A stretch of 64,000 bases of DNA from Promethearchaeota archaeon. Its GTDB lineage: Archaea; Asgardarchaeota; Lokiarchaeia; Sigyniarchaeales; SOKP01. The position numbers and the translations under genes are program-made. A model generated the notes under the pieces. The model searched no databases. It was not told the origin of the DNA and worked only from the letters and a program-made list of their open reading frames with translations. How positions within the stretch are numbered: the stretch's first letter is position 1; every line of letters begins with the position of its first letter. Location of the stretch: assembly GCA_048937405.1 (NCBI GenBank), contig JBHLNF010000003.1, positions 32,001 through 96,000 on the forward strand, given 5' to 3'. Positions 3,752-64,000 of the stretch are shown here, piece after piece.

Positions 3752-4399
3752 TTAAACATTTTTTCTACTTCTCTGAATACTCCTATAATATTTCTTTTTC
3801 CGTTGTTCCAACGGTTTCACATAACCTAATAAATCATCAAATACTATTTTTTGCTGTAATTGTGGACGAAAAATAAACTTATGATATTTTTTTTTCCAAT
3901 AGAAGCGCAAACTATTAAGATATATTAATATTTCTTTTATCTGTTGAGTTTTAATTTCTGTATACGAGGTTATTATATTTTCCTCGGTATTAGACTCAAT
4001 ATTTCTTCTTAATAAAGTACCATCAATTTTTAAAATATAGATAGTTCCATTTAAATAAGATTTATTTTCTTTATTGTGAGTTAATCCAAGGTAATGAGCG
4101 TAGAATTTAAAATTTTGACTAATTTTAGTGTTTAAATAATTCTTTTGAATAATATCTCGATTCTTATCTTTGATTAAGGCTTTTAATTCTTGCTCTTCCA
4201 TTTTTTCTTTATTTAATTGGAGAATTTCATAATATTTCACTTGTAAGTTGGTAAATATTAACATTTCTATGTTATTATAAAAATCCTGAATTTCATGAGC
4301 TAAAATCCTATCATCTTTGATATGATCCCAAATTATAAAGAAAAGTACTGCAATTGATACACCTAAACTTACATATACAAGAATATCTTCTGGTGCCAT
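3752..4399 (-). CDS. Hypothetical protein with a single N-terminal TM helix
   Basis: 215-aa ORF; hydrophobic ILVYVSLGVSIAVLFFIIW; basic C-terminus. Confidence 0.6.
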   Translation of the reverse strand: MAPEDILVYVSLGVSIAVLFFIIWDHIKDDRILAHEIQDFYNNIEMLIFTNLQVKYYEILQLNKEKMEEQELKALIKDKNRDIIQKNYLNTKISQNFKFYAHYLGLTHNKENKSYLNGTIYILKIDGTLLRRNIESNTEENIITSYTEIKTQQIKEILIYLNSLRFYWKKKYHKFIFRPQLQQKIVFDDLLGYVKPLEQRKKKYYRSIQRSRKNV

Positions 4400-17988: not shown

Positions 17989-18777
17989 ATGAAAATTGGC
18001 TATATTCAGACATCTCCTATTTTTGGGGATAAAGAAAGGAACATTAAACAAGTAGAACAATTAATATCTGAAACAACTGCTGATTTACTTGTATTACCAG
18101 AACTATTTGCAACTGGTTATGCCTTTACATCAAGAAATGAAGCATTATCATTAGCGGAAGATGAGAAGGGTAGAACTGCTAAATTTTTAATGAAATTAGC
18201 TAAAGACACGAAAGCAACCGTAGTTGGTGGTTATATAGAAAAATCAGGAGAAAAAATATATAATGCTGCTATGATTGTCTCAAGCAAAGAAGTGATAGGA
18301 ACATATCGTAAAATTCATTTATATTATAAGGAGAAACTATGGTTTTCTCCTGGAGATAAATCATTTCAAATATTTCGAATCAATGGGATTAATATTGGGA
18401 TAATGATTTGTTTTGATTGGATTTTCCCAGAAACTGTACGGTCTCTTGCTCTTTTAGGCGCAGAAATTATTGCCCACCCCGCAAATTTAGTACTTCCATA
18501 CTGTCAAAATGCTATGGTAACAAGATGTTTAGAAAATAGAGTATACGCTATAACTTCAAATAGGATAGGACGTGAAAAGCGAGGTTCAGATGATTTTAAA
18601 TTTACTGGACGAAGCCAAATAACTTCATATAATGGCGAAATTTTATCTTCAGGCCCAAAAGAGAAAAAATTTATACATGTTGTTGATATTGATATTGATA
18701 AAGCAAAAAATAAAAATCTCAATGATTTTAATAATTTATTTGAAGATAGACGTCCTAATTTTTATTTAAATATCTAA
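17989..18777 (+). CDS. Carbon-nitrogen hydrolase (nitrilase/amidase family)
   Basis: LPELFATGY, YRKIHL and ICFDW give the Glu-Lys-Cys triad. Confidence 0.92.
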   Translation: MKIGYIQTSPIFGDKERNIKQVEQLISETTADLLVLPELFATGYAFTSRNEALSLAEDEKGRTAKFLMKLAKDTKATVVGGYIEKSGEKIYNAAMIVSSKEVIGTYRKIHLYYKEKLWFSPGDKSFQIFRINGINIGIMICFDWIFPETVRSLALLGAEIIAHPANLVLPYCQNAMVTRCLENRVYAITSNRIGREKRGSDDFKFTGRSQITSYNGEILSSGPKEKKFIHVVDIDIDKAKNKNLNDFNNLFEDRRPNFYLNI

Positions 18778-46037: not shown

Positions 46038-47963
46038 ATGGGAAAAACACTCACAGAAAAAATTTTAGAAAATCATTTGGTTGAAGGAAATTTAGAAAAA
46101 GGTACAGAAATAGCTATTAAAATTGACCAAACTTTAACCCAAGATGCAACTGGTACTATGGCTTATTTACAATTTGAATCGATGGGTGTCCCTAGGGTTC
46201 AAACCGAATTATCAGTAAGTTATGTTGATCATAATACATTACAGACTGATTTCAAAAATCCTGATGATCATAGATATCTCCAAAGTATTGCTGCAAAATA
46301 TGGGTTATATTTTTCACGTCCTGGAAATGGCATTTGTCATCAAGTACATCTTGAACGATTTGCTCGTCCAGGAAGAACATTATTGGGCAGTGATAGTCAT
46401 ACACCAACAGGAGGAGGTGTTGGTTCAATTGCGATTGGAGCGGGTGGACTTGATGTAGCAGCCGCTATGGCAGGAGAACCCTTTAGATTAAAAATGCCTA
46501 AAGTTGTCAAAGTGTACCTCACAGGAAATCTTCCTGATTTTGTTTCAGCAAAAGATGTGATTTTAGAGGTATTGAGAAGAATTGGTGTAAAAGGGGCGGT
46601 AAATAAGGTACTAGAATATACTGGCCCAGGAATAAAGACATTAACAGTCCCAGAAAGAGGAACAATAACTAATATGGGAACCGAGACTGGTGCTACAACA
46701 TCAATTTTCCCCTCGGACGATGTTACTAAAGAATTTTTAGAAGCTCAGAAGAGAGGAGATCAATGGATTAAATTATTACCTGACGAAGATGCCAGTTATG
46801 ATGTAATAATCGAGATAAATTTAAATGAATTGGAACCACTTATTGCTGAACCTCATAGCCCAGGGAATGTTAAAACTGTTAAAGAATTAGAGGGGTTGAA
46901 CGTAGATCAAGTATGTATTGGAAGTTGTACTAATTCTTCTCTAAGAGATCTTAAAATTGTTGCTAATATGTTAAAAGGGAAAACTATACATCTAAATACC
47001 GTTTTAACGGTATCTCCTGGTTCTCGACAAGTTGTAGATCATATGATAGAATCTGGTGAAATGGGTTATTTGGTAAAAGCAGGAGCTAGAATTTTAGAAA
47101 ATGCATGTGGTCCATGCATTGGAATGGGTCTAGCTCCTAAAAGTGAAGCTGTTTCTTTAAGAACTTTCAATAGAAACTTTCTTGGGAGATCAGGAACAAA
47201 AAGTGCTAATGCTTATTTAGTAAGTCCTGAAACTGCTGCTATTGCAGCAATTGAAGGTAAAATAACAGATCCTAGAAGGTTTGGTAGCTTGCCCAAAATA
47301 GAAATACCTAAACGGTTTATGGTTAATGATAATATGATTGTTCCGCCATTACCTCCTGAAGAGGCTAAAAATATAGAAATTGTTAGAGGTCCAAATATAA
47401 AACCTTTACCAGAATTTAAACCTTTACCAGAAAAATTAGAAGGGGAAGTTCTTTTAAAAGTTGAGGATGACATAACAACAGATCATATTATGCCAGCTGG
47501 AGCAAAAATATTACCTTTAAGAAGTAATATTCCAGAGATTAGTAAATTTGTCTTCAATGTGGTGGATGAAGCATTTCATGATAGATCTCTTGAAAAGGGA
47601 GGAGGATTTATTATTGGAGGAGAAAATTACGGCCAAGGTTCAAGTCGAGAGCATGCAGCAATTGCACCTAAATACTTAGGAATTAAAGCTGTAATAGTTA
47701 AGAGTTTTGCACGTATTCATTTAGCAAATCTAGTAAATTTTGGAATTGTGCCATTAACTTTTGTAAATAAAGAAGATTATAACAATATTGAAGCTGGTGA
47801 TCAATTTGAGATTGATTTATCGAATATCAAATCTGGTAAAGTTTCACTGAAAAATAAAACTAAAAATTTAGATATCGAGTTAACTCATTCACTAAGTGAG
47901 CAAGATTTAGAAGAATTAATGGCTGGAGGGAAGTTGACTCTTATAAAACAAAAACACATATAA
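46038..47963 (+). CDS. Aconitate hydratase (short single-chain type)
   Basis: QDATGT, YVDHN, GICHQV, GSDSHT, IGSCTN, CGPCIG, RTFNRNF.GRSG, TTDHI, NYGQGSSREHAA. Confidence 0.95.
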   Translation: MGKTLTEKILENHLVEGNLEKGTEIAIKIDQTLTQDATGTMAYLQFESMGVPRVQTELSVSYVDHNTLQTDFKNPDDHRYLQSIAAKYGLYFSRPGNGICHQVHLERFARPGRTLLGSDSHTPTGGGVGSIAIGAGGLDVAAAMAGEPFRLKMPKVVKVYLTGNLPDFVSAKDVILEVLRRIGVKGAVNKVLEYTGPGIKTLTVPERGTITNMGTETGATTSIFPSDDVTKEFLEAQKRGDQWIKLLPDEDASYDVIIEINLNELEPLIAEPHSPGNVKTVKELEGLNVDQVCIGSCTNSSLRDLKIVANMLKGKTIHLNTVLTVSPGSRQVVDHMIESGEMGYLVKAGARILENACGPCIGMGLAPKSEAVSLRTFNRNFLGRSGTKSANAYLVSPETAAIAAIEGKITDPRRFGSLPKIEIPKRFMVNDNMIVPPLPPEEAKNIEIVRGPNIKPLPEFKPLPEKLEGEVLLKVEDDITTDHIMPAGAKILPLRSNIPEISKFVFNVVDEAFHDRSLEKGGGFIIGGENYGQGSSREHAAIAPKYLGIKAVIVKSFARIHLANLVNFGIVPLTFVNKEDYNNIEAGDQFEIDLSNIKSGKVSLKNKTKNLDIELTHSLSEQDLEELMAGGKLTLIKQKHI

Positions 47964-48003
47964 AGAAATAACAGATTTTTTTTTTTCAAATTTTATTAAT
48001 ACA

Positions 48004-48786
48004 GTGTTTGATAAAATGTTTAAACAAGATCCAAAAAAGCGTTTTTCTTCAAGAGTAGAACAATATGTGAAATTTAGACCTTCTTATCCAAAAGAAATCA
48101 TTCCATTCTTAAAAAAAAAACAAATATTATCAAAAAATTCCGTAATTGCTGATATAGGATCAGGTACAGGCATTTTAAGCGAAATTTTTTTAAAGGAAGG
48201 GAACAAGGTCTATGGAATTGAACCAAACATTGATATGAGAAAAGCTGGAGAAGTTCAACTAAAAAAATACTCTAATTTTATAAGTATTGACGGTTCAGCT
48301 GAAAATTCTTTGCTCGAATCTAAAAGTGTTGATATCATTACTGTAGGACAAGCTTTCCATTGGTTTGATTTAGATAAAACAAAAATCGAATTTTCGAGAA
48401 TTCTTAAACCTAATGGTTGGGTTGTTTTGATTTGGAATCATCGAAATAATCAGAATAATGAGTTTTTAAAGGACTATGAAAAATTTCTCATAAAGTTTGG
48501 GACAGACTTTAGCAATATCGAAAAAAGAATACAAGATTGTCAAAAATTTTTCGGAGGAAATCATCTAGAGAAGACATATGAATATCAAATGTTTTATAAT
48601 TCTCAAATTTTCGATTATAAAGGTTTAGAAGGTAGAGTACTTTCTACTTCTTATCTTCCTTTAGCAGATCATCCTTTATTTAATTCAATGATTATTGAAC
48701 TAAAGGAACTTTTTGAGAAGCATCAACAAAATGGTTCAGTTAAATTTGAATATAAGACAGAAGTTTTTTACGGACAGTTAATATAG
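48004..48786 (+). CDS. Class I SAM-dependent methyltransferase
   Basis: YVKFRPSYP, DIGSGTG, IEPN, GQAFHWF. Confidence 0.9.
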   Translation: MFDKMFKQDPKKRFSSRVEQYVKFRPSYPKEIIPFLKKKQILSKNSVIADIGSGTGILSEIFLKEGNKVYGIEPNIDMRKAGEVQLKKYSNFISIDGSAENSLLESKSVDIITVGQAFHWFDLDKTKIEFSRILKPNGWVVLIWNHRNNQNNEFLKDYEKFLIKFGTDFSNIEKRIQDCQKFFGGNHLEKTYEYQMFYNSQIFDYKGLEGRVLSTSYLPLADHPLFNSMIIELKELFEKHQQNGSVKFEYKTEVFYGQLI

Positions 48787-48803
48787 TTTAAAATTATTTT
48801 TGG

Positions 48804-49802
48804 TTAGTTTTTATAATCTTTCAGATAACTGTGAATTGTTTTAAATTTTTCAAGAGAAGAGATAATTCTACCCTCTTTCAATAATTTTAAACCTTCATCA
48901 TTTAATTTTGTAATAGAATTCTTAAGCTCTTTAAACTTAAGTTGTTCCTGAAGTATTTTAAGTAATTTGGAATATTCCTCTACAGTCTCGTTTTCTTTTA
49001 TTGATTCAGCAAGTTGAATAATTTTTTTGCTATTTTTGATTGCATCTTTAAAATTCTTCTTATCTTGGAGGTATTTAACATCATTAATTAATTGTTCTAT
49101 TCTGAGTAAGGTCTTTTGATACTCTTTTTCAGCATTTATAACATCATTTTCAATAACTCTTATTTCTTTTAAATAATCAGTAATCTCGTTTTCTTCCAAT
49201 TCTTTAATAAGTTCACTTAACTTTTCCTTTAAATCTTCAAAAAGATATTTCTCCTTTAAAATAATGCTTTCTTCTATTAAATTTCCAGACTTTTCTATTA
49301 GTTCTTTTCTAATTTTCGATTTTAAAGCGTTATTTTCATACTTCTCCCATTTGCTCTTTATTTTATCATCATCAAGATCAGAAATTAGGTTTTTAGCAGT
49401 TTCTAATATTACTTCTGTTTTTTTAAAATCGTCTAATTTTAGAGCTATATTAAACTCGCTTTCTAAATGACTTAATTCTAATTTTATTTTCTTAATTTTC
49501 TCAAGTCTTAACTTTTCTTGTTCAACCCTGATTCTTTCTCTTTCGTTTTCTTCTCTTTCTTTTAAGATCTTCTTGATTCTATCAATTAAACTTTCTTGCT
49601 CTCTAATAAACGATCTTAAGTCTTCCAGTTCAGCTAATTCTATGATTTCATAAGCAAGAAATAATGCTTCGTTCAACTTTCCTTTCATATATGCTTGTCC
49701 TTGAATTGCAATTTTGTCATCAATTTCAGAAATTATCTTAATCTTTCTTTTTTCTTCTTTTTCTTCTTCTGCTTCAATTTCCTCGGATCTTTCTTCAGCC
49801 AA
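48804..49802 (-). CDS. Helical-repeat/coiled-coil protein, paralogous to the rod of the upstream gelsolin-domain protein
   Basis: Aligns by eye with residues ~120-540 of 49806-51428. Confidence 0.7.
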   Translation of the reverse strand: MAEERSEEIEAEEEKEEKRKIKIISEIDDKIAIQGQAYMKGKLNEALFLAYEIIELAELEDLRSFIREQESLIDRIKKILKEREENERERIRVEQEKLRLEKIKKIKLELSHLESEFNIALKLDDFKKTEVILETAKNLISDLDDDKIKSKWEKYENNALKSKIRKELIEKSGNLIEESIILKEKYLFEDLKEKLSELIKELEENEITDYLKEIRVIENDVINAEKEYQKTLLRIEQLINDVKYLQDKKNFKDAIKNSKKIIQLAESIKENETVEEYSKLLKILQEQLKFKELKNSITKLNDEGLKLLKEGRIISSLEKFKTIHSYLKDYKN

Positions 49803-49805
49803 TTT

Positions 49806-51428
49806 TTACACCTTATAGGCTTGTAATTGATCTATAATTTGTTCAAAAAATTTTAATGACTTTTCAAAGGAACCCTTATCTAAAGCGACTATACCATTTT
49901 TACTTAAAAATTCAATATTTTCTAAAAGTCGTCTAGCGGTATGAAATTTTGTTTTGAAATTATCCCATTTATCAATAATATCATCATCAACTAATTCATT
50001 AAGGATTTTTTCACTCTTCTCAAAAACTTCATTTGCGGCTTTTATCTCCATCCTTTTAATGTTTAAAGTAATTATTTTTTCTAATTTTGAGAGTTCTTCT
50101 TTCAATTTATTTTGTCTTTCTTCAAATTCTTTCCTTTTTTTAATTTGTTTTTTAGATTGTTCTAAAATATTTTTATAATTATCGATTACTTCAGATTTGT
50201 TTATAGATTTTCCTAATTCAATGATTTTTTCACAATCTTTGATAACTTCTTCTAAAAGAGTATTTTTTTGATTATTTATAATATTATTATCTAACCTCTT
50301 AATTTCTTCTAATGTCATATTATATAGTTCTTCAGCAGAATCAATTTCTTTGGATATCACCTCTAATTTGTCACGATACTCTAAAAAATCTATGGATTCA
50401 ACTTCTTTTATTAAGGTCTCAATTTTTGTTTTTATTTCATTGTATAGATACGCTTCCTTTAATTTTATTATCTCTTCAGAAAATTTCTCGAATCTATTTA
50501 TAAACTCGATTTTGTCTTTTGCCTTTTGGATTTTTTTATGAAATTCTTCCCATTTATTCTTAGTCTTTTTTTCAATTAAATTAGATATAAGATTCATTGC
50601 TTTATCATAGATTTCAGTAGCTTCTGAAATCTCCAAGTTATCTATAGATTCATTAAAATCTTTTTCTAATATGGAAAGATCATTTTTTATTCTTTCTTGT
50701 TCAGCTTTCCACTTCTTTTTTTCTTTTAAAATTAATTCTTTAGCACTCGGAACTAGAGTTAGATCATATACTTTCTCATATTTTTCTCTAAAGAATTCGA
50801 CTAACTCATGAGCACTTAATATATTTTTTACGTTTATTAACTTGTTATATTCCTTTTCAATTCTTATTGTTTCTTGTTCAATTTCAGATATGATCTTTTG
50901 ATTCTCATATTTCTCAGTTAATTCTGATAATAAAGTTTCTTGTTCTGTTTTAAGTGCATCATTTTGTATTTTTTCTGCTAATCCCATTATTTCTTTCAAT
51001 AGCTCAATTGCATTTTCAAAATCTTCAGATTCTATAGATTTTTCTGATTTTCCTTTTAGATCATCTATTTTTTCTAATACTGGTAGTACAGTTTTTTCTT
51101 GATATTCAATAATCTCATATAATTCATCTTTTGTGATATTTAAATTCTTGAAAAATTCATATGGTTCTGATCTCATCTCAAATGTAATATTTCTGATAAT
51201 TCTAAATTGAGGAAATTCTTCCTTTAACAACACTCGAATTTGGGCAACATGGTTTTTTAGAGTTTGAGTTGCATTTCTTCCTATCCAGATATACATTGTT
51301 TTTATTTTCTGCATATGGATAGCTAAAATATTAACAATTGTGAATACATCTTTTATGTTTTCATAAGCAATCTCATCAAAAGTCCCGTCATAATTTAATT
51401 TGAAGGTTTTTATTATATTTTCAACCAT
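49806..51428 (-). CDS. Gelsolin-like domain fused to a long helical-repeat rod
   Basis: First ~95 aa contain NILAI...MYIWIGRNA...FEMRSEPYEFF (gelsolin-repeat pattern); remainder alpha-helical. Confidence 0.65.
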   Translation of the reverse strand: MVENIIKTFKLNYDGTFDEIAYENIKDVFTIVNILAIHMQKIKTMYIWIGRNATQTLKNHVAQIRVLLKEEFPQFRIIRNITFEMRSEPYEFFKNLNITKDELYEIIEYQEKTVLPVLEKIDDLKGKSEKSIESEDFENAIELLKEIMGLAEKIQNDALKTEQETLLSELTEKYENQKIISEIEQETIRIEKEYNKLINVKNILSAHELVEFFREKYEKVYDLTLVPSAKELILKEKKKWKAEQERIKNDLSILEKDFNESIDNLEISEATEIYDKAMNLISNLIEKKTKNKWEEFHKKIQKAKDKIEFINRFEKFSEEIIKLKEAYLYNEIKTKIETLIKEVESIDFLEYRDKLEVISKEIDSAEELYNMTLEEIKRLDNNIINNQKNTLLEEVIKDCEKIIELGKSINKSEVIDNYKNILEQSKKQIKKRKEFEERQNKLKEELSKLEKIITLNIKRMEIKAANEVFEKSEKILNELVDDDIIDKWDNFKTKFHTARRLLENIEFLSKNGIVALDKGSFEKSLKFFEQIIDQLQAYKV

Positions 51429-51530
51429 TAAATTTCCTCCGAACTTATCATAACAAAATAGTTAAAGAATTTGCTTTTAAAGGTTTGCGAATAGAAAGGA
51501 GGAAATTACGCTATAGTTCCATCTTATAAT

Positions 51531-52910
51531 TTAAACCATTTTTTTGGGGTCTAATAAATTATCCAAATTGTCTATTTTCAATCCCATTTCCTTAATGACA
51601 GTCTTAATTGTCTTTCCTTCTTTATATGCTCGTTGAGCTATCTCGGAACATTTATCATAACCTAAAATGGGCGTTAAATTTGTAATAATCATCAGCATTT
51701 GTTCTAAATTTTCATTTATTTGCGAAACATTAGCCTTTAATCCAATTAAACAATGTTCTATAAATGAATTAATTCCACCAATTAGTATTTCAATAGATTC
51801 AAGTAAATTAATGATCATTACAGGTTTACATACATTCAAATCTAATATACTACCATATGCCTCTCCATATGAAATTACTGAATCATTTCCAATAACTTGA
51901 AGACAAACCTGAATTAATGCCTCGGACTGCGTAGGATTTATTTTACCTGGCATGATTGATGAACCAGGTTCATTTTGAGGTAATTTTAATTCATATAATC
52001 CCGCTCTTGGTCCACTTCCCATCCAACGTATATCATTAGCCATCTTTAATAAAGATAAAGCTAATAACCTAAGATTTCCACTTAGATTGACTACCGAATT
52101 ATGGGAAGCAATACCTTCTGCTTTCACAGGATTAGTTTTAAATAATATATTTGTAATTTGAGATAAATGAGATATTGTGAGTCTTGCAAAATCCTTATGC
52201 GCATTCAAGCCAGTTCCTAATGCAGTTCCCCCAATTGGAATGTAATATAATTCATTACAAGCATTTTGCAATCTTTCTGTATTAGTTTGAATTTGCTTTT
52301 TATAGACTTTAAATTCCAAAGACAGTGGTATAGGAATGGCGTCTTGTAGATGAGTCCTCCCTATTTTAATAATATCTTCAAAATCACTAATCTTTTTATT
52401 TATGTTTTCTATTAATTTTTCCAATGTTAGAAATAACTTTTGAATCATATGCAAAGCAGCTACATGCATCGTAGTTGGGATCACATCATTCGATGATTGA
52501 CTTTTATTTACATGATCATTAGGGTGTATAGGATATTTTTCACCCATTGGGTATCCTAATATTTCATTTGCTCGATTCGCTAATACTTCATTCATATTCA
52601 TATTTGTTTGGGTTCCTGAGCCAGTTTGAAAAATATCTATAGGGAATTGATTGAGATGTTTTTTTTCATTTAATATCTCATCTGCAGCTTTAAGAATGGC
52701 CTTTCCTTTTTCTTCATCAACCAGAGCTAAATCAATATTTGCCAAGAGACAAGCCTTTTTTACTTGGACTAAAGAAGTTATAAAAATTGAGGGAAACTTC
52801 TTACCACTAATTTGAAAATTCAAGATGGCTCGTTGAGTATTAGCACCCCAATAAACATCAGAAGGAACTTTTATTTCACCTAACATATCATTTTCAATAC
52901 GATAATTCAA
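51531..52910 (-). CDS. fumC: Fumarate hydratase class II
   Basis: QTGSGTQTNMN, HPNDHVN.SQSSND, GRTHLQDA, GSSIMPGKINP. Confidence 0.93.
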   Translation of the reverse strand: MNYRIENDMLGEIKVPSDVYWGANTQRAILNFQISGKKFPSIFITSLVQVKKACLLANIDLALVDEEKGKAILKAADEILNEKKHLNQFPIDIFQTGSGTQTNMNMNEVLANRANEILGYPMGEKYPIHPNDHVNKSQSSNDVIPTTMHVAALHMIQKLFLTLEKLIENINKKISDFEDIIKIGRTHLQDAIPIPLSLEFKVYKKQIQTNTERLQNACNELYYIPIGGTALGTGLNAHKDFARLTISHLSQITNILFKTNPVKAEGIASHNSVVNLSGNLRLLALSLLKMANDIRWMGSGPRAGLYELKLPQNEPGSSIMPGKINPTQSEALIQVCLQVIGNDSVISYGEAYGSILDLNVCKPVMIINLLESIEILIGGINSFIEHCLIGLKANVSQINENLEQMLMIITNLTPILGYDKCSEIAQRAYKEGKTIKTVIKEMGLKIDNLDNLLDPKKMV

Positions 52911-53904: not shown

Positions 53905-54456
53905 CTATAATTTTGTATTATTAATTCCTTTAAATATAATAATAGGAAAATGATTTATTAATAACTTGCAATTGACATATTTTCTTAGAGGTTTTTTAAA
54001 TTACTCACTGGCACAAAAGCTATAATGATATTTAAAAAAATGTATTCTATAAGAGAATTTAACAAGATTTTTTCCATATAATATCAATATTCAAAGTTTT
54101 CCCATATGACAGTATAGATAATTATATAATTGTCCTATTTATGTATTTTATTCGAAAAATACGACAAAATAGAGTATATTCAAAATAATATCGAGATTTA
54201 CAAAAATAAACTTTAAATATAAGTCGTAAATTAATTATGTTCGTATCTTCAATAGAGGGTAAATAATTGAAATTTAATGTTTATTATTCAAAAACAATAG
54301 AAAGAAAGGAAGATGTCCAAGGTTTTAGATATTTTCATACTGGTCCTCGGAATTTTTTGAATAATGAAATCATCATTTTCCTCTATATAAAAAGTATTTT
54401 TCATTAAGAGTATAAAGAAAATTTAAATAAAAATGATCAAATAGGTGCCAGATTAT

Positions 54457-57400
54457 ATGAGTAAAATAAAACAGGAACCAAATGAACTTAAATTGTCTAA
54501 TATGAAAAACAAGGAGAGATTCTACAACATAAAATTATCAAAAATTACTAATAAAAATAGGCTTTGTCAATATAATGGACAATTTAATGAAATTAGAAGA
54601 TTTAGGCAATGGCTATATAGAAATAATCTGTCTTTTTTAAAATTTAAAGAAGAGTTGCAAAATATCTGGAGTATTTTCAAGCGATATGAAGAAACTAAGA
54701 TGTACACCACACATGATCTTCTTTTTATGAAGATAATTAGACAACGAAATATTAATTCCTCCTCACTTATCATCTCTAAAGAATTCCATTCTATTTTGAA
54801 TAAAGAGAAAATGCAATTGTATCAATTATTAAAAAGAATTTCTGAAAATTATAAGCATCAAACTCATGTAGGGTTTTTAGATTATTATTCTTCAGATAAT
54901 CAAGAAAGACCTATTACCTCATCAAGTGCAAGTGGTCTATTAACTAAAGAAATAGGATGGAAACAAAATCGAATTATTCCCTATGATGATCCAACAAGTA
55001 GGGAAGTATGGGAGGAAAACCAAATTCTAGAATATCACCTTGCACAAAAAGAAGAAATTACTCAAAAACGCTTATTGGAAAGAAAAAAACTTTATAAAAA
55101 AGATCTGCAAATACAAAAAAAACTCGAAATAGAATACCGAACAAAATTAGATGAAGTCTCTAATGATTTACGTTGGATAAGATTGTTAAACAATAATAAT
55201 GATTTTAATGTTATATCAATTCTCAAGGAAAAGGAAAAATTTGAACACTTTTTTGTAGAAAACAACTTACCAGATCAAGAGTATATTGCTTTTCTTAGAC
55301 TATATAAGGAGATAAAAAAAAGATATAATTTTTTAAAAAAAATCGGATACCAAAAACACACTTCGTTATCATATAGAGAGGCTCAGTTAAATTTCCTAAA
55401 AGAACAGGAATGTTTAATTAATGATTATTTTAATGGTATTAAAAGAAATAATGAATTTATAAAGCAAACATCTTCTTTCAATAAACAAGCCCGTCAATTT
55501 ATTAGAAACATTATTAAAAATAATTCCTCTCTTAATTTAACTTCAGAACACCCAGAATTCTTGTTTATTAATCATGATAAAGAAAAGATTGAGAAAATAC
55601 CATATTACTTAGATTGTATAAACGATTTGTTGATTTTAGCTCAAAATAGAAAATATGTTAAAAAAATCTTGACAAAGAATATTAATTCTATTAAAATACA
55701 GAAGAAGAACAATCATAAAAAACAAGAGAAATCATCAGAAAAAGAAAACCTCTATTCAAAAAAAATTTTTAAAAATAAATTTGCCAAAAATTTTGTGAAA
55801 TCTTTACCTTTGATAAGTTTGGTTTTGGTACCTCTTTTAATGGTGTTTTCTCCTGGAGATAACTTTTATTCTGGATATTTATTAACTTACTTTCCTTTTA
55901 TGCAAGTTCTAATCTTTACTATTTGTCTTTTAATATACACTTGGGATCTAGTTTTGTCAAAAGCTCAATTATTATTTGTTACAGTATCGCCGATAATTCT
56001 TTTTAATCTTATAGTACTGATCAGTGAAATTTTCGGAGCGAGAGTATCTTTGTATATAACTCCAATTATGCTGATCCCTTCATATTTTGTATTAAGAAAT
56101 ATCCCTAAAAAAATCGAACGTGAATCTGAAAATTTAAAGCATTTATACCACAAAAGTAAAATATTAATTCTGTGGGTTTTGCTATCTATATCTTTTGTTC
56201 TTTTTTGGATAATTTTTGTTTTTTTTCCACGACTTCTATTTGTACCTGCATTTATAATAATTGTATCTATTGTTTTGTTTACTAAAAAATGTAATTATCA
56301 AAAGAGCAGAATTGTTGACCAATTAAAGAAAAAGTACTTTGACTATCGCTATCGAAAAAGTTCTCAAAAAGAGTTTTCATGCTATAATGCGAACAATTAT
56401 AGAGCCGCCCTATTAATGGCAATATTTCTTGTATTTATGCCATTACTTTTCTCAATTAATTCTATTGTTCGTATTGACTGTCCAGATCTTCAATTTTCGC
56501 GAATACCCCAGGATTTAAGACTTAAAACAAGTGATATAGATTATGATAACTTAGAATATCTTTCTTCACTCGATGTATTAGAAGACTTATCATTCAATGG
56601 CAAGTTTATTGCAAGATGCCAAATATCACCTAATTGGGGTGCAAGCGCTTCAATTAGAGTTCGCTTAATACCTAAAAACGTGACTCCAGTAGAAGGGTAT
56701 CAATTAAAAAAATTCTATGATATTTATTCCAAAGATAAAACAGGTCCTTTAAAAAATTATAGTCTAATTACTCATATTTCATTAAACGAATTAGATCTAT
56801 TACCAGGGAAATATGAGGCAAAGGTATACTACACTGAAATATCAGGATTTTCATATAGAATTGCTGAACCAAAAATATATGAAGTAACGTTAGAAAAAGA
56901 TGCCTTGAAAATCCTACCCACCCACCCATTTGATTTAGGAGAAGATGTAAATTACGGAGCGGTCTATACTTTTGAATATGAAAATTCCTGGAATATCACT
57001 TTTGATGGGAGATTAACAAATTCATTGGAAGAAGGTATTCAAGCAAATTTAACCTTATTTCTTGAGGACCATAACAAATGGGTCAATATTGCAAATATTA
57101 CCACGACAGAAAATGGCTCATTTTTCTTTGAGTATGCAAAATTTGGCTCCTTCGAGGTAAATGCGTTGGCTAAAATTGAGTTTGCGGGGGATGATCTTTA
57201 TGAACCCCTTATGTACGAAGAATATGCGGGACTTGAATTTTCCATTGATGGAGGAAGATTTTTTAGGGATGAGGATGGAGATGGGTATCCTGATTGGCCA
57301 TATAGTTTGTATGATTTGCTTGAAGCGCTAAAAGCGCAGGATGAGTATTATTCGAATGCTCTCGATTTTTTTGATGAGTTTGATACGGGGTACGGTTCTA

Positions 57401-60400
57401 CCACAACAGAAACCATCCACGGTTATACCGGTACCTTGAACGGCAATACAGCATGGGGATCGGGTGTTCGGGATTACGGACTTGTTCTTGATGGAGATGG
57501 TAATATTATGTATGATATCAATGAGTTCTTTAATATCTATATGTATGCTACTTATTCAATTCTTTCCTATGAATATTTTAGTGGTGGTGGAACATATGGA
57601 TCAACAGGTTCACCGACCACCACTTCCAGCGAGATAAGGACAGCGGGTGGTGAACCTGTAGCTGAGATATATTCTGCCCAGACTGCACTGGATATCAATA
57701 GAATAGTGGGTGGTGGGGGTAGCTTTGATAGCACCTTATCGGCGGGAACCGTAGCAAATGTAAATAGGGACATATACATAAGTGAATCAACAGAGTTACA
57801 TCCTACATCGTCGACCACAAGTGTTGAGAGAGGTGGTGAGGACTGGTCGAACCCAGGGAATGTGCAGTCCCAGGATAATGTCTACGCTTCTGCCGATTTG
57901 GTAGAAGGTGGTGGGAGCGGTGTTATCATTGAGGATTATGTGGATAGTGATACCTCGGATGTGGATGGGGTACCTGATGAGGGGACCTTAAGTGATTTCA
58001 ATAATATGCAAACGGTGGATGCCACCCATTCGACTATTACCGAGGAGGGTATTGGTGGTAGTGGAGGTACTTTCGGGTATGGGATAGGAGAGGGGAATAC
58101 AGTGACATCAAACGGCTTTTTGTATGTGGCCGGTGTTACGGGTTCCACGATTGCCACCTTTACGGGAGATGGGGTGGTAGAGAGTATTTGGATAGACATT
58201 TATGAGGATTACGGTGGAGTGCTTGATTTTTATCTGGGTACCATATCTGGAACTAGTTTTGTGTTCAAACAGTACGATCCGATTTGTTCTATTGATCCTT
58301 CGGTTGTGGGTTGGCAGGAGTTTACAGCCCCTGATGATTTTACGGCGTTTATGGTGGAAGCGGGGGATGTGTTGGGCTTTTATAGCAGTACCAGTGCGGT
58401 AACGGTAGGAAGATCTAGTTCGGGGTCGTATATGTCCTATCATTACAGTAGTGCGACTCGTCCGTATAGCGGAAGTGTTACGCTTAGCTCTTCGACGAGT
58501 AGGAGATTAGAGATCTTGGCAACGGCAAGTCCGCTTTCGTCTGATTATGTAGCAGAGCAAGAAGTGCAATTTACTGATGTAATGGACTTTATGGCAGTGG
58601 AAGAGCTGTGTATTAACACGGGTAGTATGGGTGCAGAAGACCTGGCGGTGGAATACTGGGACGGAGATTCTTGGGAGGTGATTGCCTCAGATTTAACCGC
58701 ATCAGCCTGGAATAATTATTCTGTGTCATTAGATAGTTCAGCTTTTACGGTTCGTTTTAGCGACGGTACCAAGACGGGAGATACCACTACGCAGGATAGC
58801 TGGACTATCGATGCAATGTTGTTGAAATACTCCGGGGGGGGTGTTAATGAGGATTATGTGGATAGTGATACCTCGGATGTGGATGGAGCGGGAGATCTCG
58901 GAGCATTGGCTGATTTTGATGATATGAAGGCAACAGATAGTTCTTATTCGACGCTGACCGAAACATCTGGATCAGTGGTGTGGTATAATGGTACGACTCC
59001 CAGTGATTTAATATTGGTTACGAGTCCTGATATATCCGGTACAGCGGTAACTTATACCACTTTTAATGAGGGCAATCTTGCTACTGATGATGATGCGTAT
59101 GGAGGTTTTAATATCCAAGACGAAGGTAGTGGGAATCCAACACAACAGGTGTTTCACTATTTTGATTTTGATATATCCGGTCTTGGAATTAGCGGTTCTG
59201 AATTAGACCAATTAATATTTGAGGCGGAGTATTATTTCCACGGTGGTACCTCTCTTGCTCCTGTTTCATCTGCTGATGTGTGGGAAATGGAAGGTAATTC
59301 CATCGATAGCGCTATTATGATTTATGATTGGACTGCATTATCGTGGTCGGTAATGGGGAGTATGGATTTCTTGAATGAAAACAATCTAGCAAATTGGGAC
59401 CAAACCAGTGATACAAATGCCGAGAGACCGTTGATTCGATCTAAAACCTCGGGATTCACGGACGGTCATATTAGTGGTAGTGGAATTATCCGCATCATGT
59501 GTAATATCACAGGCACTTTTCAAGGAACTTCCTATGACGGAGTCGGAGTAGTTGATTATGCTAAAATAGATTTCTGTTACTCCTCGGGAAGTGAGTATCA
59601 ACTGGAGCAGGAGGTACAATTTGAAGACATTCCTGATGAGGCGGATCAGATGCCAATAAAGGAGTTATGTATTAAAACGGGTAGCATGGGAGCGGAAGAC
59701 TTGGCGGTGGAATACTGGAACGGTGATTCTTGGGAAACATTATTCTCAGATCTAACAGCTTCTTCGTGGAATAATATCAGCATCTTAGGTTATCTATCAG
59801 CACCGACCTTTATTATTCGTTTCAGCGATGGTGCCAAAACTTCGGATGTATCAGGAGATGTGTGGAATATCGATGTGGTGTTGATTCATCTTGAGAATTC
59901 CGGCGGCGGAAGTGGTGGAGGAAACTCAGAATCGGATTGTTTACGTATTGATTTAGATTACATTTTGCCCGGAGCGGATCTTATAGAGGGATTAACTATA
60001 GATGGTATTGAGGTTCGCATTGATAGGCACGCAAGTGTAGCAAGTGCTCTTCTGGATTATTGGGTACAGCTACGCAATGCGTCGGGTCCGAAAGGTGATA
60101 ATAAGGCAAGTGCGGTGTACTGGGATGCTACTGACACGGACACCTATACGGTGTATGGAAGTTCGTTCGATGTATGGGGAACATCATGGACGGTAGCCGA
60201 GATTAACAGTGGTGGATTTGGAATAGACATAGTGGTAAACGCAAGTACTAACAGTATTGCTTATATAGATCATGTGATTGTATTGGTGTATTATTCAGGG
60301 TTTGTGTCTGGAAGGGAGTGGCAGAATCCAACAGGTGCGCAGGTACAAGATGATATAGTTACCTTTACAGAGTTTGAGGGATTGATCGAAAGTGAATCTG

Positions 60401-63400
60401 ATTGGTTGAGGTTAACTGATTTTGGCTTTATGATCCCCAGTACGGCAATCATTACCGGAATTGAGGTGGCTATGGATAGGTATGCGAATGTAAGTTCTAT
60501 TTATAGTAATGGTTTGTATTTACTCAAGTCTGGTGTGGAAGTTGGAATTGGAAAAGATATTGGAACTATATGGGACACCGTTGATGATGATAATTATGAT
60601 GTGTTCGGAGGTCCCGGAGAGTTGTGGGATGAGTCGTGGAGTTATTCTGATATTAATGATCCTGAATTTGGGATTCAATTGTCCGTATCTTCTATAGAAT
60701 CTTTTGATAGAAAAGCCTGTATTGATGATTTGAATATAACTATATATTATATCGAGCCGGAAGTTACTGCTGAGGTGTGGTTTGATGCGTTAAATTCCTT
60801 GGCACAAGACGATAATAGCGTCTATGTAGTGTTTAATGCAACGACAGAAAATAGTTCAAATTGGCTACGGTTGAGTAATTTTGGCTTTTCACTTCCCTCT
60901 GATGTGGTTATTAATGGTATTACGGTGGAGGTAGATAGAGCGGCAACTCAGAGTGCTGCGATCAGAGACGGCGAGATCTATCTGCGGAAGACAAGCGGTC
61001 GGGTTGGTGATAATAAGGCAAGTGCCTCGTGGTGGGATACTGTGGATGATGATGTGTATGATAGCTATGGTGGATCAACAGATTTGTGGGGGACTACATG
61101 GTCTTATTCTGATATTAACGATCCAGAGTTCGGAGTGGATCTGTATGTGGAAAATTTCGGAACGGGTGATGTCAATGCCAGTATCGATCATATAGTAATT
61201 ACGGTGGATTATACTCTACTCCCTCAGAATCAGCAACCCTGGGTGAATTCTCACTATGCGGGAGATCAGGATGATGATGAAACTTATGCCTCGTTTAGCA
61301 CGTCAACAGAAAGCAGTTCTGATTGGCTGATGCTGACAAATTTTGGTTTCTCTTTGCCATCAGATGCGGTAATCGATGGTATTACAGTAGAAATAGATAG
61401 GTTCGCAACCCAAGCATCTTCGATTAGAGACGTGGCGGTGTATCTAATGAATACAAGTGGCCCAGTTGGTGATAATAAAGCCAGCGCCTCGTGGTGGGAT
61501 ACCATGGATGATGATAACTACGATAGTTATGGCGGTGCATCTGATTTGTGGGGGATTACTTGGGACTATTCAGATATCAACAATCCTGATTTCGGTATGG
61601 TGATGTATGTGGAGTATCTAGGGTCTATGGCTACTGAAGCCAGAATTGATCATGTTCGTATTATCGTCAATTATACGATTCAGCCTACATTACAGCAGGA
61701 TAGCGGTGTTGTACGTCCTGATGGGGATGTTATGACTCAGTGGAATGCGTCGACAGCAGGGGATCATTATCTCTTACTTAATGAAGGTATTATCGATCCC
61801 ACGGTACCCAATACTAATAGCGGGTATATCTTTACTTCCAGTTCCAGTAGTGGATCATATATTATTGATGAATTTACGATGGAAACACTTGATATCAGCA
61901 GCGGAAATATCACACAAATCGAGATTAAAGTCTACGGCAATGAAACAATAAGTATTGATTCTACCATAGATGTATATTGCGGTGGTAGCTGGCTAGGAGC
62001 GCAACAACTAAATATGGGCACAAACGGATGGTATACCTATACCTGGAATGGGTTAAGTTTATCACAGGCGGATTTAGATGGAATGCAGGTAAAGTTTAAT
62101 TCAATCGTTCCCGATCCGATTCTTTCCAATCCAACCTACGAAGATTTTGATTTTGTACAATACGGAGATATTGTAGATCATATTCTCGGAAGTTCAAATA
62201 GCCAAACCGTAATTACCTCGTGGATTTTTCCAACCGCATTAACTTCAAATGTGAGTGAAAACGGATTGAATAATGTATTTATTTCAAAAAATGGTAATCT
62301 AGAATTGGGAATCAGCGAAGATGGACATCTACAGGTGTATATGAAGACAGTCGGTGCTGAAGCAACCGCCGAATATGGTACTTTTGGAGGAATAGACTTG
62401 GACCAATGGACCTATATTGCGGTGCGATATGATAAGGGTGATGTTGATGTGCTTATCGGGGATGCTTGGTACACCTCGGCAATCGGTGATGTTCCAGAAC
62501 CATGGAACGGTGGTGGAAATTTTATTAGTGGTGCTGAATTTATCATCGGTGCAGAACTTACTAACTATATCTGCTTTACAGGAAGATTAGATGAGGTAAG
62601 TCTGTTTAATCGATCGGTTTCTGATTCAGAGATTGAGCATCACGGTACTCGATCAATTCCTCCCTCACTTGATTTTCATCTTGAGTTTGAAGAAAATACT
62701 GGTTACTCTACCTTCGATTCCGTGCATAATTACGAAGGGACTTTAGAAGGAAATACAGCGTGGGTTAGTGGGTATGATGGTTACGGTCTCAATTTTGATG
62801 GACAGGGTACTATTGTGTATGAAGAAAGATTTGCATCATATATGTATGCCACCTATTCGATTATTTCCTATGAATATTTTAGTGGTGGGGGTAGCTTTGA
62901 TAACACCTTATCGGCGGGAACCGCAGCAAATGTGGATAGGGATTTAGGTAGTAGCAGTACAGAACTTACTCGGTCTCCAGCTACAACGACCTCGGTTGAC
63001 AGAGGCGGTGAAGACTGGTCGAACCTAGAGAATGTGCAGTCCCAGGATAATGTCTACGCTTCTGCCGATTTGGTAGAAGGTGGTGGGAGCGGTGTTATCA
63101 TTGAGGATTATGTGGATAGTGATACCTCGGATGTGGATGGAGTTCCTGATGAGGGGACCTTAATTGATTTCAATAATATGCAGGCATTGGATGTAATATA
63201 TGCAACTATCACAGAGGTTGGTGATAGTGGAGAGGGAGGTACTTTCGGGTACGGGATAGGAGAGGGGGATACAGTGACATCAAACGGCTTTTTGTATGTG
63301 GCTGGGGTTACGGGTTCCACGGTTGCCACCTTTACGGGAGATGGGATGGTAGAGAGTATTTGGATAGATATTTATGAGGATTATGGAGGAGTGCTTGATT

Positions 63401-64000
63401 TTTATCTGGGTACCATATCTGGAACTAGTTTTGTGTTCAAGCAGTACGATCCGATTTGTTCTATTGATCCTTCGGCTGTGGGTTGGCAGGAGTTTACAGC
63501 CCCTGATGATTTTACGGCGTTTATGGTGGAAGCGGGGGATGCGCTGGGCTTTTATAGTAGTACCAGTGCGGTAACGGTAGGAAGGTCAAGCTCAGGGTCG
63601 TATATGTCCTATCATTACAGTAGTGCGACTCGTCCGTATAGCGGAAGTGTTACGCTTAGTTCTTCGACGAGTAGGAGATTAGAGATCTTGGCAACGGCAA
63701 GTCCGCTTTCGTCTGATTATGTGGTGGAGCAAGAAGTGCAATTTACTGATGTAATGGACTTTATGGCAGTGGAAGAGCTGTGTATTAACACGGGTAGTAT
63801 GAGTGCAGAAGACCTGGCGGTGGAATACTGGGACGGAGATTCCTGGGAGGTGATTGCCTCAGATTTAACCGCATCAGCCTGGAATAATTATTCTGTGTCA
63901 TTGGATAGCTCAACCTTTACCGTTCGGTTTAGTGATAGTACCAAGACGGGAGATACCACTACGCAGGATAGTTGGACTATCGATGCAATGTTGTTGAAGT
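54457..64000 (+). CDS. Giant (>3180 aa) 7-TM cell-surface protein with LamG-like and repeated jelly-roll ectodomains (3' end outside window)
   Basis: Frame +1 is open from ATG 54457 (MSKIKQEPNEL...) to the window end, so it is absent from the ORF track. Basic N-terminal ~450 aa; hydrophobic helices at 55801-56470; acidic Gly/Ser/Thr/Asp-rich ectodomain with many N-x-S/T sequons; DEDGDGYPD Ca-type loop (57268-57294); LamG C-part ...WTYIAVRY...FTGRLDEVSLFNR. Confidence 0.88.
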   Translation, partial: MSKIKQEPNELKLSNMKNKERFYNIKLSKITNKNRLCQYNGQFNEIRRFRQWLYRNNLSFLKFKEELQNIWSIFKRYEETKMYTTHDLLFMKIIRQRNINSSSLIISKEFHSILNKEKMQLYQLLKRISENYKHQTHVGFLDYYSSDNQERPITSSSASGLLTKEIGWKQNRIIPYDDPTSREVWEENQILEYHLAQKEEITQKRLLERKKLYKKDLQIQKKLEIEYRTKLDEVSNDLRWIRLLNNNNDFNVISILKEKEKFEHFFVENNLPDQEYIAFLRLYKEIKKRYNFLKKIGYQKHTSLSYREAQLNFLKEQECLINDYFNGIKRNNEFIKQTSSFNKQARQFIRNIIKNNSSLNLTSEHPEFLFINHDKEKIEKIPYYLDCINDLLILAQNRKYVKKILTKNINSIKIQKKNNHKKQEKSSEKENLYSKKIFKNKFAKNFVKSLPLISLVLVPLLMVFSPGDNFYSGYLLTYFPFMQVLIFTICLLIYTWDLVLSKAQLLFVTVSPIILFNLIVLISEIFGARVSLYITPIMLIPSYFVLRNIPKKIERESENLKHLYHKSKILILWVLLSISFVLFWIIFVFFPRLLFVPAFIIIVSIVLFTKKCNYQKSRIVDQLKKKYFDYRYRKSSQKEFSCYNANNYRAALLMAIFLVFMPLLFSINSIVRIDCPDLQFSRIPQDLRLKTSDIDYDNLEYLSSLDVLEDLSFNGKFIARCQISPNWGASASIRVRLIPKNVTPVEGYQLKKFYDIYSKDKTGPLKNYSLITHISLNELDLLPGKYEAKVYYTEISGFSYRIAEPKIYEVTLEKDALKILPTHPFDLGEDVNYGAVYTFEYENSWNITFDGRLTNSLEEGIQANLTLFLEDHNKWVNIANITTTENGSFFFEYAKFGSFEVNALAKIEFAGDDLYEPLMYEEYAGLEFSIDGGRFFRDEDGDGYPDWPYSLYDLLEALKAQDEYYSNALDFFDEFDTGYGSTTTETIHGYTGTLNGNTAWGSGVRDYGLVLDGDGNIMYDINEFFNIYMYATYSILSYEYFSGGGTYGSTGSPTTTSSEIRTAGGEPVAEIYSAQTALDINRIVGGGGSFDSTLSAGTVANVNRDIYISESTELHPTSSTTSVERGGEDWSNPGNVQSQDNVYASADLVEGGGSGVIIEDYVDSDTSDVDGVPDEGTLSDFNNMQTVDATHSTITEEGIGGSGGTFGYGIGEGNTVTSNGFLYVAGVTGSTIATFTGDGVVESIWIDIYEDYGGVLDFYLGTISGTSFVFKQYDPICSIDPSVVGWQEFTAPDDFTAFMVEAGDVLGFYSSTSAVTVGRSSSGSYMSYHYSSATRPYSGSVTLSSSTSRRLEILATASPLSSDYVAEQEVQFTDVMDFMAVEELCINTGSMGAEDLAVEYWDGDSWEVIASDLTASAWNNYSVSLDSSAFTVRFSDGTKTGDTTTQDSWTIDAMLLKYSGGGVNEDYVDSDTSDVDGAGDLGALADFDDMKATDSSYSTLTETSGSVVWYNGTTPSDLILVTSPDISGTAVTYTTFNEGNLATDDDAYGGFNIQDEGSGNPTQQVFHYFDFDISGLGISGSELDQLIFEAEYYFHGGTSLAPVSSADVWEMEGNSIDSAIMIYDWTALSWSVMGSMDFLNENNLANWDQTSDTNAERPLIRSKTSGFTDGHISGSGIIRIMCNITGTFQGTSYDGVGVVDYAKIDFCYSSGSEYQLEQEVQFEDIPDEADQMPIKELCIKTGSMGAEDLAVEYWNGDSWETLFSDLTASSWNNISILGYLSAPTFIIRFSDGAKTSDVSGDVWNIDVVLIHLENSGGGSGGGNSESDCLRIDLDYILPGADLIEGLTIDGIEVRIDRHASVASALLDYWVQLRNASGPKGDNKASAVYWDATDTDTYTVYGSSFDVWGTSWTVAEINSGGFGIDIVVNASTNSIAYIDHVIVLVYYSGFVSGREWQNPTGAQVQDDIVTFTEFEGLIESESDWLRLTDFGFMIPSTAIITGIEVAMDRYANVSSIYSNGLYLLKSGVEVGIGKDIGTIWDTVDDDNYDVFGGPGELWDESWSYSDINDPEFGIQLSVSSIESFDRKACIDDLNITIYYIEPEVTAEVWFDALNSLAQDDNSVYVVFNATTENSSNWLRLSNFGFSLPSDVVINGITVEVDRAATQSAAIRDGEIYLRKTSGRVGDNKASASWWDTVDDDVYDSYGGSTDLWGTTWSYSDINDPEFGVDLYVENFGTGDVNASIDHIVITVDYTLLPQNQQPWVNSHYAGDQDDDETYASFSTSTESSSDWLMLTNFGFSLPSDAVIDGITVEIDRFATQASSIRDVAVYLMNTSGPVGDNKASASWWDTMDDDNYDSYGGASDLWGITWDYSDINNPDFGMVMYVEYLGSMATEARIDHVRIIVNYTIQPTLQQDSGVVRPDGDVMTQWNASTAGDHYLLLNEGIIDPTVPNTNSGYIFTSSSSSGSYIIDEFTMETLDISSGNITQIEIKVYGNETISIDSTIDVYCGGSWLGAQQLNMGTNGWYTYTWNGLSLSQADLDGMQVKFNSIVPDPILSNPTYEDFDFVQYGDIVDHILGSSNSQTVITSWIFPTALTSNVSENGLNNVFISKNGNLELGISEDGHLQVYMKTVGAEATAEYGTFGGIDLDQWTYIAVRYDKGDVDVLIGDAWYTSAIGDVPEPWNGGGNFISGAEFIIGAELTNYICFTGRLDEVSLFNRSVSDSEIEHHGTRSIPPSLDFHLEFEENTGYSTFDSVHNYEGTLEGNTAWVSGYDGYGLNFDGQGTIVYEERFASYMYATYSIISYEYFSGGGSFDNTLSAGTAANVDRDLGSSSTELTRSPATTTSVDRGGEDWSNLENVQSQDNVYASADLVEGGGSGVIIEDYVDSDTSDVDGVPDEGTLIDFNNMQALDVIYATITEVGDSGEGGTFGYGIGEGDTVTSNGFLYVAGVTGSTVATFTGDGMVESIWIDIYEDYGGVLDFYLGTISGTSFVFKQYDPICSIDPSAVGWQEFTAPDDFTAFMVEAGDALGFYSSTSAVTVGRSSSGSYMSYHYSSATRPYSGSVTLSSSTSRRLEILATASPLSSDYVVEQEVQFTDVMDFMAVEELCINTGSMSAEDLAVEYWDGDSWEVIASDLTASAWNNYSVSLDSSTFTVRFSDSTKTGDTTTQDSWTIDAMLLK
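57829..58828 (+). repeat. Long intragenic direct repeat, copy 1
   Basis: Near-identical to 63001-64000 at a constant offset of 5172 bp (57901/63073, 58201/63373, 58801/63973). Confidence 0.92.
63001..64000 (+). repeat. Long intragenic direct repeat, copy 2 (continues beyond window)
   Basis: See copy 1; weaker homology extends back to 62668 versus 57361. Confidence 0.92.

Follow-up and report, generated by a model that had tools for sequence, protein, structure and literature searches.

A polytopic N-terminal module as the probable membrane anchor of a 20,619-residue surface protein in a Promethearchaeota archaeon

The stretch of DNA analysed here, called the window, comprises 64,000 nucleotides (nt) from a Promethearchaeota archaeon (GenBank assembly GCA_048937405.1, contig JBHLNF010000003.1, positions 32,001 to 96,000 of the forward strand). 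According to the ORF list of the window, a single open reading frame (ORF) opens with a GTG at position 54445 and runs without a stop to the window end at 64000. It is the only long ORF over 54457-57300 and lies on the plus strand. When the rest of the frame was retrieved from the genome, it was found to continue to C13:148304 and to comprise 20,619 codons in total, free of stops and of N. The encoded protein has a mass of about 2.3 MDa, glycans not counted, and the second-largest ORF of the genome (4.47 Mb, 29% GC) has 3,512 codons. The protein begins with a cytoplasmic domain and seven predicted membrane helices. This N-terminal module is, on balance, probably the polytopic anchor that holds the giant surface protein to the producer cell, with the last helix starting the export of the chain. 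The features of the window are listed below (aa, amino acid residues of the ORF; TM, transmembrane helix; K+R, number of lysine plus arginine residues).

54422 to 54429, plus strand: TATA-box-like TTTAAATA, a candidate archaeal promoter read from the sequence, 27 nt 5' of the ATG at 54457
54457 to 54459, plus strand: ATG, the likelier of two start codons and the one used in the initial annotation
54457 to 55800 (aa 5-452), plus strand: cytoplasmic N-domain, Lys-rich, net charge +33, predicted to be helical
54955 to 55029 (aa 171-195), plus strand: motif GWKxxR..PY(H/D)DxxSRxE(F/W), also in P0002, P0003, P0004, P0008, P0009 and P0017
55378 to 55704 (aa 312-420), plus strand: helical segment DYFNG..R...AR..IK..I, common to the three closest homologues
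55801 to 55854 (aa 453-470), plus strand: TM1, in to out, from hydropathy, alignment and AlphaFold2
55873 to 55938 (aa 477-498), plus strand: TM2, out to in, from the same three sources
55963 to 56028 (aa 507-528), plus strand: TM3, in to out, from the same three sources
56044 to 56088 (aa 534-548), plus strand: TM4, out to in, the shortest and weakest helix with 15 residues and two Pro
56089 to 56160, plus strand: basic cytoplasmic loop 4-5 (family mean K+R 6.9), closing with a near-invariant YHxxK
56155 to 56277 (aa 571-592 and 595-611), plus strand: TM5-TM6 hairpin with the invariant Pro595 in a two-residue outer turn
56278 to 56394 (aa 612-650), plus strand: strongly basic cytoplasmic loop 6-7 (family mean K+R 11.3)
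56395 to 56460 (aa 651-672), plus strand: TM7, in to out, predicted reverse signal-anchor, with R653, F661, L662, P666 and F669
56461 to 57144 (aa 673-900), plus strand: juxtamembrane ectodomain, beta-rich, the best-conserved extracellular part of the family
57145 to 64000, plus strand: start of the acidic, sequon-bearing ectodomain (LamG-type domains), which runs about 52 kb past the window to the end of the ORF

The GTG at 54445 lies directly 3' of an in-frame TAG, and a GGTG is found at 54444-54447, upstream of the ATG at 54457. In the homologous protein P0004, the start falls at most about 20 residues from the point of this ATG, which is likely the true start rather than the GTG. From its spacing, the TATA-box-like element would place the start of the transcript a few bases 5' of 54457.

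A Kyte-Doolittle scan was run over the entire protein to locate its hydrophobic segments. Up to residue 17,600, strong ones occur at aa 449-680 only, and this block splits into seven helices between 55801 and 56460. The initial annotation had seen seven hydrophobic segments at 55801-56470 and strongly basic loops past TM4 and TM6, and both the helices and the quoted loops were recovered. In an alignment of 29 homologues, the mean K+R per segment from the region before TM1 to the region after TM7 was 2.93/0.07/1.72/0.14/6.86/0.07/11.28/2.07. The alternation between inside and outside was observed in 15 of 15 aligned homologues and then in 29 of 29. In the 30 residues past TM7, the family mean of K+R was 2.1 versus 3.8 for aspartate plus glutamate (D+E), and TM7 has the layout of a type II (reverse signal-anchor) segment, a basic inner flank of the last helix and acidic or neutral chain beyond. 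AlphaFold2 run on the 29-sequence alignment returned seven membrane helices and one cytoplasmic helix, with a predicted local distance difference test score (pLDDT) of 74.8 and a predicted template modelling score (pTM) of 0.51. An amphipathic cytoplasmic helix lies in loop 6-7 at aa 617-634 (H185-202 of the model). Because K+R alternates so cleanly across the family, the topology is predicted to be N-in/C-out, as had been proposed from the two basic loops. Seven is an odd number of helices. It would drop to five, also odd, were TM3 and TM4 not membrane-spanning, and the C-terminal part would stay outside in either case.

An exhaustive phmmer search of 1.84 billion representatives matched only 29 proteins. 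All 29 share aa ~420-700 and three of them also aa 312-420. A search with the core profile took in 399 genomes of the phylum and found the profile in 26 of the 133 genomes of the source's own family versus 2 of 265 elsewhere, so the module family is almost confined to one family of the Promethearchaeia (Lokiarchaeia). Most of the full-length profile matches head frames of 11,000-14,800 codons; the other full-length matches have shorter frames, several of which lie on short contigs. With a closer alignment, a search for related loci led to five loci in Asgard metagenome-assembled genomes, and one homologue was labelled only 'LamG domain-containing protein, partial'. The family is defined here by alignments seeded with the protein of the window as query. 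Judged from these alignments, the module is conserved well beyond chance.

The invariant and near-invariant residues cluster in TM5-TM7 (Y568, H569, K572, P595, R653, F661, L662, P666, F669 and S673). The YHxxK at the inner face, which opens TM5, was found with Tyr in 28, His in 28 and Lys in all 29 of the sequences. The signature of the family thus consists of YHxxK, the TM5-Pro-TM6 hairpin, the basic loop, R..FL...PL.F.[VI]xS in TM7 and the juxtamembrane domain.

Five further complete giants of 11,373-14,832 residues, from the genomes G193, G248, G184, G168 and G157 of four genera, were compared with the protein of the window. A simple scan of their N-terminal regions counted ~12 helices in G193, 7 in G248 (the weak TM4 included), 11 in G184, 13 in G168 and 3 in G157. 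For G193 the number is probably 11 rather than ~12, since the region homologous to the cytoplasmic domain comes after the extra module, which must therefore have an even number of helices. Ahead of the first helix stand 16 residues in G168, ~15 in the locus L014 and 650 in G248, and in 11 further loci with the 7-helix core the first helix starts anywhere from residue 15 to 661. Overall, the orthologues have ~15 to ~660 residues before TM1 and 3 to ~13 helices. Several giants match the core profile over TM7 and the juxtamembrane part only, and the three-helix variant G157 retains the TM5-TM6 hairpin. Since the helix count and the length of the inner domain vary and some giants match only from TM7 onwards, the constant unit is TM5-TM6-TM7 with the first ectodomain, and TM1-TM4, the extra helices and the cytoplasmic domain are optional. 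The module is probably a polytopic anchor of giant Asgard surface proteins that is restricted to this lineage and has not been described before.

Starting from what was observed, namely the ORF, the helices, the charge alternation, the pattern of conservation and the taxonomic range, we infer the following course of events. The Lys-rich helical domain of ~450 residues would stay in the cytoplasm and the seven helices would cross the membrane. TM7, with ~11 Lys/Arg in the preceding loop, would act as a reverse signal-anchor and pass the ~20,000 residues that follow into the Sec translocon, which would export them co-translationally. TM7 would not be cleaved, and the preceding helices would remain as a multi-helix foot, their number serving the mechanical anchoring. 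The conserved Tyr, His, Lys and Arg at the inner interface may bind lipid head groups or a cytoplasmic partner. In this way the module would hold one end of a very long glycosylated fibre and set its polarity, so that the N-terminus is anchored and the C-terminus forms the free tip.

Several points weigh against this proposal. The topology is built on hydropathy, the positive-inside rule and a model of medium confidence, and TM4 is marginal. A passive anchor would leave the invariant YHxxK unexplained, as well as the conserved 400-residue cytoplasmic domain of the subfamily and its motif. In addition, all 29 sequences agree with the (-3,-1) rule of signal peptidase at the end of TM7, and the ectodomain might thus be cleaved from the module. 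TM7 would then be an internal cleavable signal peptide, cut after Ser673, and the N-terminal module a leader or a separate membrane protein, with the ectodomain either freed or held by its own C-proximal hydrophobic segments. We regard this as unlikely. TM7 has a basic n-region, a hydrophobic core and a c-region with Pro at -8 in 27 of 29 sequences, and it ends in a conserved [VIL]-x-[ST] at aa 671-673, one codon beyond 56460 (V/I/L/T at -3 and S/T at -1 in all 29). Secreted proteins of the source genome carry similar hydrophobic N-terminal cores of ~20 residues, and C-proximal Gly/Ala-rich hydrophobic segments do exist near aa 17,635 and 18,115. However, the hydrophobicity of TM7 extends to +1 (L/I/M) and +2 (V/I), and the segment was modelled as one unbroken helix of 26 residues (aa 649-674). 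Its 22-residue span is full-length, and such spans are usually not cleaved. The conservation of TM5 and TM6, which are bundled with TM7 in the model, is hard to explain for a discarded leader, and the outer loops of 2-8 residues are too short to hold a released ectodomain.

The cytoplasmic domain was then compared between the homologues. P0004 could be aligned over aa 33-435 with an E-value of 1e-32 and 28% identity over 403 residues, and partial homology was found to P0002, P0003, P0011, P0018 and G193. Because of the alignment with P0004, the ~450-residue domain, proposed already in the initial annotation, is taken to be genuine coding sequence; as the homologue aligns from aa 33 onwards, the start does not lie 3' of the basic region. 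Its helices were predicted from a single-sequence AlphaFold2 model of aa 1-700, which had low confidence (pLDDT 43) and was uninformative. The motif GWKxxR..PY(H/D)DxxSRxE(F/W) occurs once in the whole source genome, and a pattern search did not find it in the five other full-length giants. In aa 1-720 no Pfam or NCBIfam family was detected, with only sub-threshold noise (DUF2956 at E 0.069 and TIGR03751 at E 0.059), and the feature search of the ESM Atlas with aa 1-450 gave no usable match. Nor did Pfam, NCBIfam or the ESM Atlas feature search reveal a signalling domain, be it a kinase, cyclase, HAMP, TIR or any other.

These results bear on the claim of the initial annotation that the protein is receptor-like and couples adhesion to signalling. 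In such a receptor, events at the ectodomain would be relayed across the helix bundle, and the cytoplasmic domain would recruit partners such as small GTPases, leucine-rich repeat (LRR) proteins or the cytoskeleton. The conservation of the cytoplasmic domain in the subfamily, together with its motif GWKxxR..PYHDxESRxEF, speaks for this, as do the invariant Y/H/K/R at the inner interface, the two Arf/Ras-like GTPase genes 3' of the giant gene in the source genome and an LRR protein gene 3' of the giant gene in 4 of the 5 other genomes. On the other side, the cytoplasmic domain is nearly missing in G168 (16 residues) and in L014 (~15 residues), and the number of helices is not fixed. As the orthologous giants carry 3, 7, ~11 and ~13 helices and inner domains of ~15 to ~660 residues, the giants can do without seven helices and without a large inner domain. 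The searches named above recognised no signalling domain, and no similarity of the bundle model to a receptor fold was detected. The GTPase genes do not neighbour the giants of the five other genomes. The LRR genes come from a multi-copy family, and 3 of the 4 are convergent with the giant gene. The claim of signalling was therefore not upheld, and we rate a signalling receptor as quite improbable. An inner function that is specific to the subfamily is possible.

For the anchor, similarity to known folds was searched with the model of the helix bundle. Foldseek against the PDB gave nothing below E = 1 with this medium-confidence model; chains of G-protein-coupled receptors (GPCRs) headed the list at template modelling scores (TM-scores) of 0.15-0.22. 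VIA-align wide reached Z-scores of at most 8.9 and found three- and four-helix sub-bundles only, among them soluble and designed proteins, which is in the noise range for helical proteins. The fold search of the Atlas reached TM-scores of at most 0.39, to transporters of the major facilitator superfamily. A known fold is thus not detectable with this model, which is no proof of a new fold. The initial annotation had made no claim of homology to GPCRs, and this agrees with the best Foldseek hit (E = 1, TM-score 0.16). The predicted inside position of the N-terminus is the opposite of the GPCR type. The bundle could also be more than an anchor and form an oligomer, a conduit or a platform that aids the export, the bundling or the firing of the giant chain or its tail. 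A conserved polar cluster lies at one membrane face, there are several helices where one would do, and the tail resembles exported cargo. The lack of a channel or transporter match in the Atlas and VIA searches, where similarity was limited to parts of the bundle, and the existence of the three-helix variant G157 make this very improbable.

The chain beyond the membrane anchor comprises about 20,000 residues, where the initial annotation had expected more than 2500 acidic and sequon-rich residues outside the cell. The juxtamembrane ectodomain is 33-44% identical to that of all five other full-length giants. No Pfam match, including GAIN/GPS, was found in aa 440-1500, and the domain is specific to the family. 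Up to about aa 18,000 the chain past TM7 is acidic, with 107-137 D+E versus 20-55 K+R per 750 residues. As far as about aa 17,900, the number of sequons equals or exceeds the expected one (the genome-wide ratio of observed to expected is 1.09), which fits a chain exposed to the extracellular glycosylation machinery. Few known domains were recognised in the ectodomain, namely Laminin_G_3 (about six copies), CBM96, DUF2341 and a sialidase-like carbohydrate-binding module, and over 90% of its length lies outside any Pfam match. It is mostly non-repetitive save for one duplication of ~1,750 residues. At window 57,445-66,444 (aa 1001-4000), the GC content at third codon positions is 0.33-0.39 versus 0.17-0.22 in the N-terminal module, the tail and the aconitase gene, and the duplicated LamG arms may be compositionally foreign or shaped by biased gene conversion.

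Towards the C-terminus, weaker Gly/Ala-rich hydrophobic segments of glycine-zipper type are found at aa 17,635-17,662 and 18,115-18,145. The last 2,684 residues (aa 17,937-20,619; C13:140,253-148,304) have no N-x-S/T at all, where ~23 would be expected, and are the longest such stretch of the proteome. All five other giants are likewise sequon-free over their last ~1,400-3,200 residues. The loss of sequons occurs near conserved Gly/Ala-rich segments, and the boundary is not sharp, since one or two sites follow it closely in G248 and G157. Residues 13,500-18,750 are colinear in the six giants with 27-56% identity to the five others, whereas the last ~1,900 residues match none of these five. For the last 621 residues, only weak partial matches were found, in 2 of the 133 genomes of the family. 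In the giants, a conserved carrier thus bears C-terminal tails that vary among close relatives, as in polymorphic toxins. Pfam, NCBIfam and PDB-sequence searches with the tails of the six giants gave no match, and Pfam at E = 10 was also empty for the last 288 residues. A 'peptidase C39-like' cluster of the Atlas (score 0.76) is a weak lead for the tail.

Other exported proteins of the source genome were inspected for sequons. A protein of 2,758 residues (C28:270,448-278,724, minus strand) has 24 sequons in its N-terminal part of 1,098 residues, hydrophobic segments, and a sequon-free C-terminal part of 1,661 residues. Two secreted proteins, of 1,449 residues (C11:26,408-30,757, minus strand) and 909 residues (C28:385,790-388,519, plus strand), are almost free of sequons. 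Since other secreted proteins of the genome also lack them, the depletion of sequons would mark exported but unglycosylated chains. Exported chains of the source genome may thus in general be of two kinds, glycosylated and deliberately bare.

A more far-reaching proposal, which we consider possible but doubtful, is that the giant is an archaeal fibre for contact-dependent delivery, with the module as its foot on the side of the producer. In this proposal, the polytopic anchor and the cytoplasmic domain would tie a glycosylated stalk of ~17,000 residues to the cell, possibly to the cytoskeleton via PYHDxESRxEF, and the C-terminal glycine-zipper segments and the sequon-free, swappable tail would be inserted into or delivered to a neighbour cell. 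According to a passage in PMC8416519, which cites Makarova et al. 2019, archaeal polymorphic toxin systems are predicted and uncharacterised.

The arrangement can be compared with known surface proteins. Teneurins are type II surface proteins of animals with a C-terminus derived from a toxin. Like the archaeal giant, they have the N-terminus inside, a sizeable cytoplasmic domain, a very large C-terminal ectodomain and a cargo- or toxin-like tip at the far C-terminal end. Unlike the giant, they have a single helix instead of seven, and the archaeal protein is about eight times longer. No sequence or fold relation to teneurins was found, and no Pfam match to the YD/Rhs shell was obtained along the giant protein. 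If the delivery-fibre proposal were true, a teneurin-like topology would have arisen in the closest archaeal relatives of eukaryotes. Adhesion GPCRs and polycystin-1 also combine a giant adhesive ectodomain and a multi-pass core in one chain, but their ectodomain is N-terminal and their N-terminus outside, the opposite of the orientation here. Neither a GAIN/GPS Pfam match nor a structural match to the bundle (best E = 1, TM-scores 0.16-0.22) was observed. CdiA, the RTX adhesins (LapA) and staphylococcal Ebh share the megadalton fibre, lectin-like domains, a conserved stalk and a variable C-terminal tail, but have a cleaved signal peptide, retention by type I or type V secretion systems, or a single C-terminal helix. 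To our knowledge, no bacterial giant adhesin or toxin carrier has an N-terminal polytopic anchor with a cytoplasmic domain.

Archaeal proteins of more than 10,000 residues are mostly from Asgard archaea (bioRxiv 10.1101/2023.11.21.568195). The same work describes the 'Archaeovorins' of Omnitrophota, which are likewise prokaryotic, longer than 10,000 residues and equipped with several predicted membrane helices; these proteins are bacterial, their helices are scattered along the chain and they have many enzyme domains, whereas the giant studied here has one compact N-terminal module followed by ~17,000 residues without a strong hydrophobic segment. In cryo-tomography, Lokiarchaeum showed a single membrane that lacks an S-layer and bears complex surface proteins. 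Loki-type Asgard archaea have no S-layer, and the protrusions with which they contact syntrophic partners are covered with unidentified 'complex surface proteins' (PMC9834061). The members of the family, of 11,000-20,600 residues and in each case much larger than any other protein of the genome, are candidates for these 'complex surface proteins'. The N-terminal module settles which end is bound to the cell and so fixes the polarity for any model of the variable tail. By the compact signature of TM5-TM7 and the juxtamembrane domain, further members can be recognised in fragmented metagenomes, and antibodies or tags can be designed on it. Among prokaryotes it would be unusual for a megadalton fibre to be held by a polytopic N-terminal anchor in which a cytoplasmic domain is optional, and such an anchor offers a connection of the cell interior with the surface that can be tested.

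The genes around the giant were also recorded. Starting 61 nt past its stop, two genes (L005:1927-2784 and 2976-3851, plus strand) encode proteins of 285 and 291 residues, each with an N-terminal extension and a GTPase domain of the Arf/Ras type in the C-terminal half. The presence of such GTPase genes agrees with a source among the Loki-type Asgard archaea. No counterpart of these genes was found beside the giants of the five other genomes, and the first GTPase has no close counterpart. The linkage to the GTPases was dropped as evidence for signalling since they are not conserved neighbours. In 4 of the 5 other genomes, a gene for an LRR protein, with an N-terminal domain of ~170 residues and LRR_14/LRR_8 repeats, is found directly 3' of the giant (L026:4427-6073, minus strand; L029:6008-7366, minus strand; and the equivalents in G248 and G157). 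In three of the four, its orientation is convergent with that of the giant, and the source genome has multiple copies of this protein family.

The giant gene and the two GTPase genes lie inside a cluster of genes for the tricarboxylic acid cycle (window 46,038-52,910 and L005:4274-8693), with aconitase and fumarase upstream of the giant and the ATP-citrate lyase subunits and isocitrate dehydrogenase downstream. Elsewhere in the genome, an ORF of 2,991 codons (C7:657,077-666,052, minus strand) consists almost entirely of hydrophobic helices, with at least 45 TM-like segments by hydropathy, and would be an extraordinarily large polytopic membrane protein.

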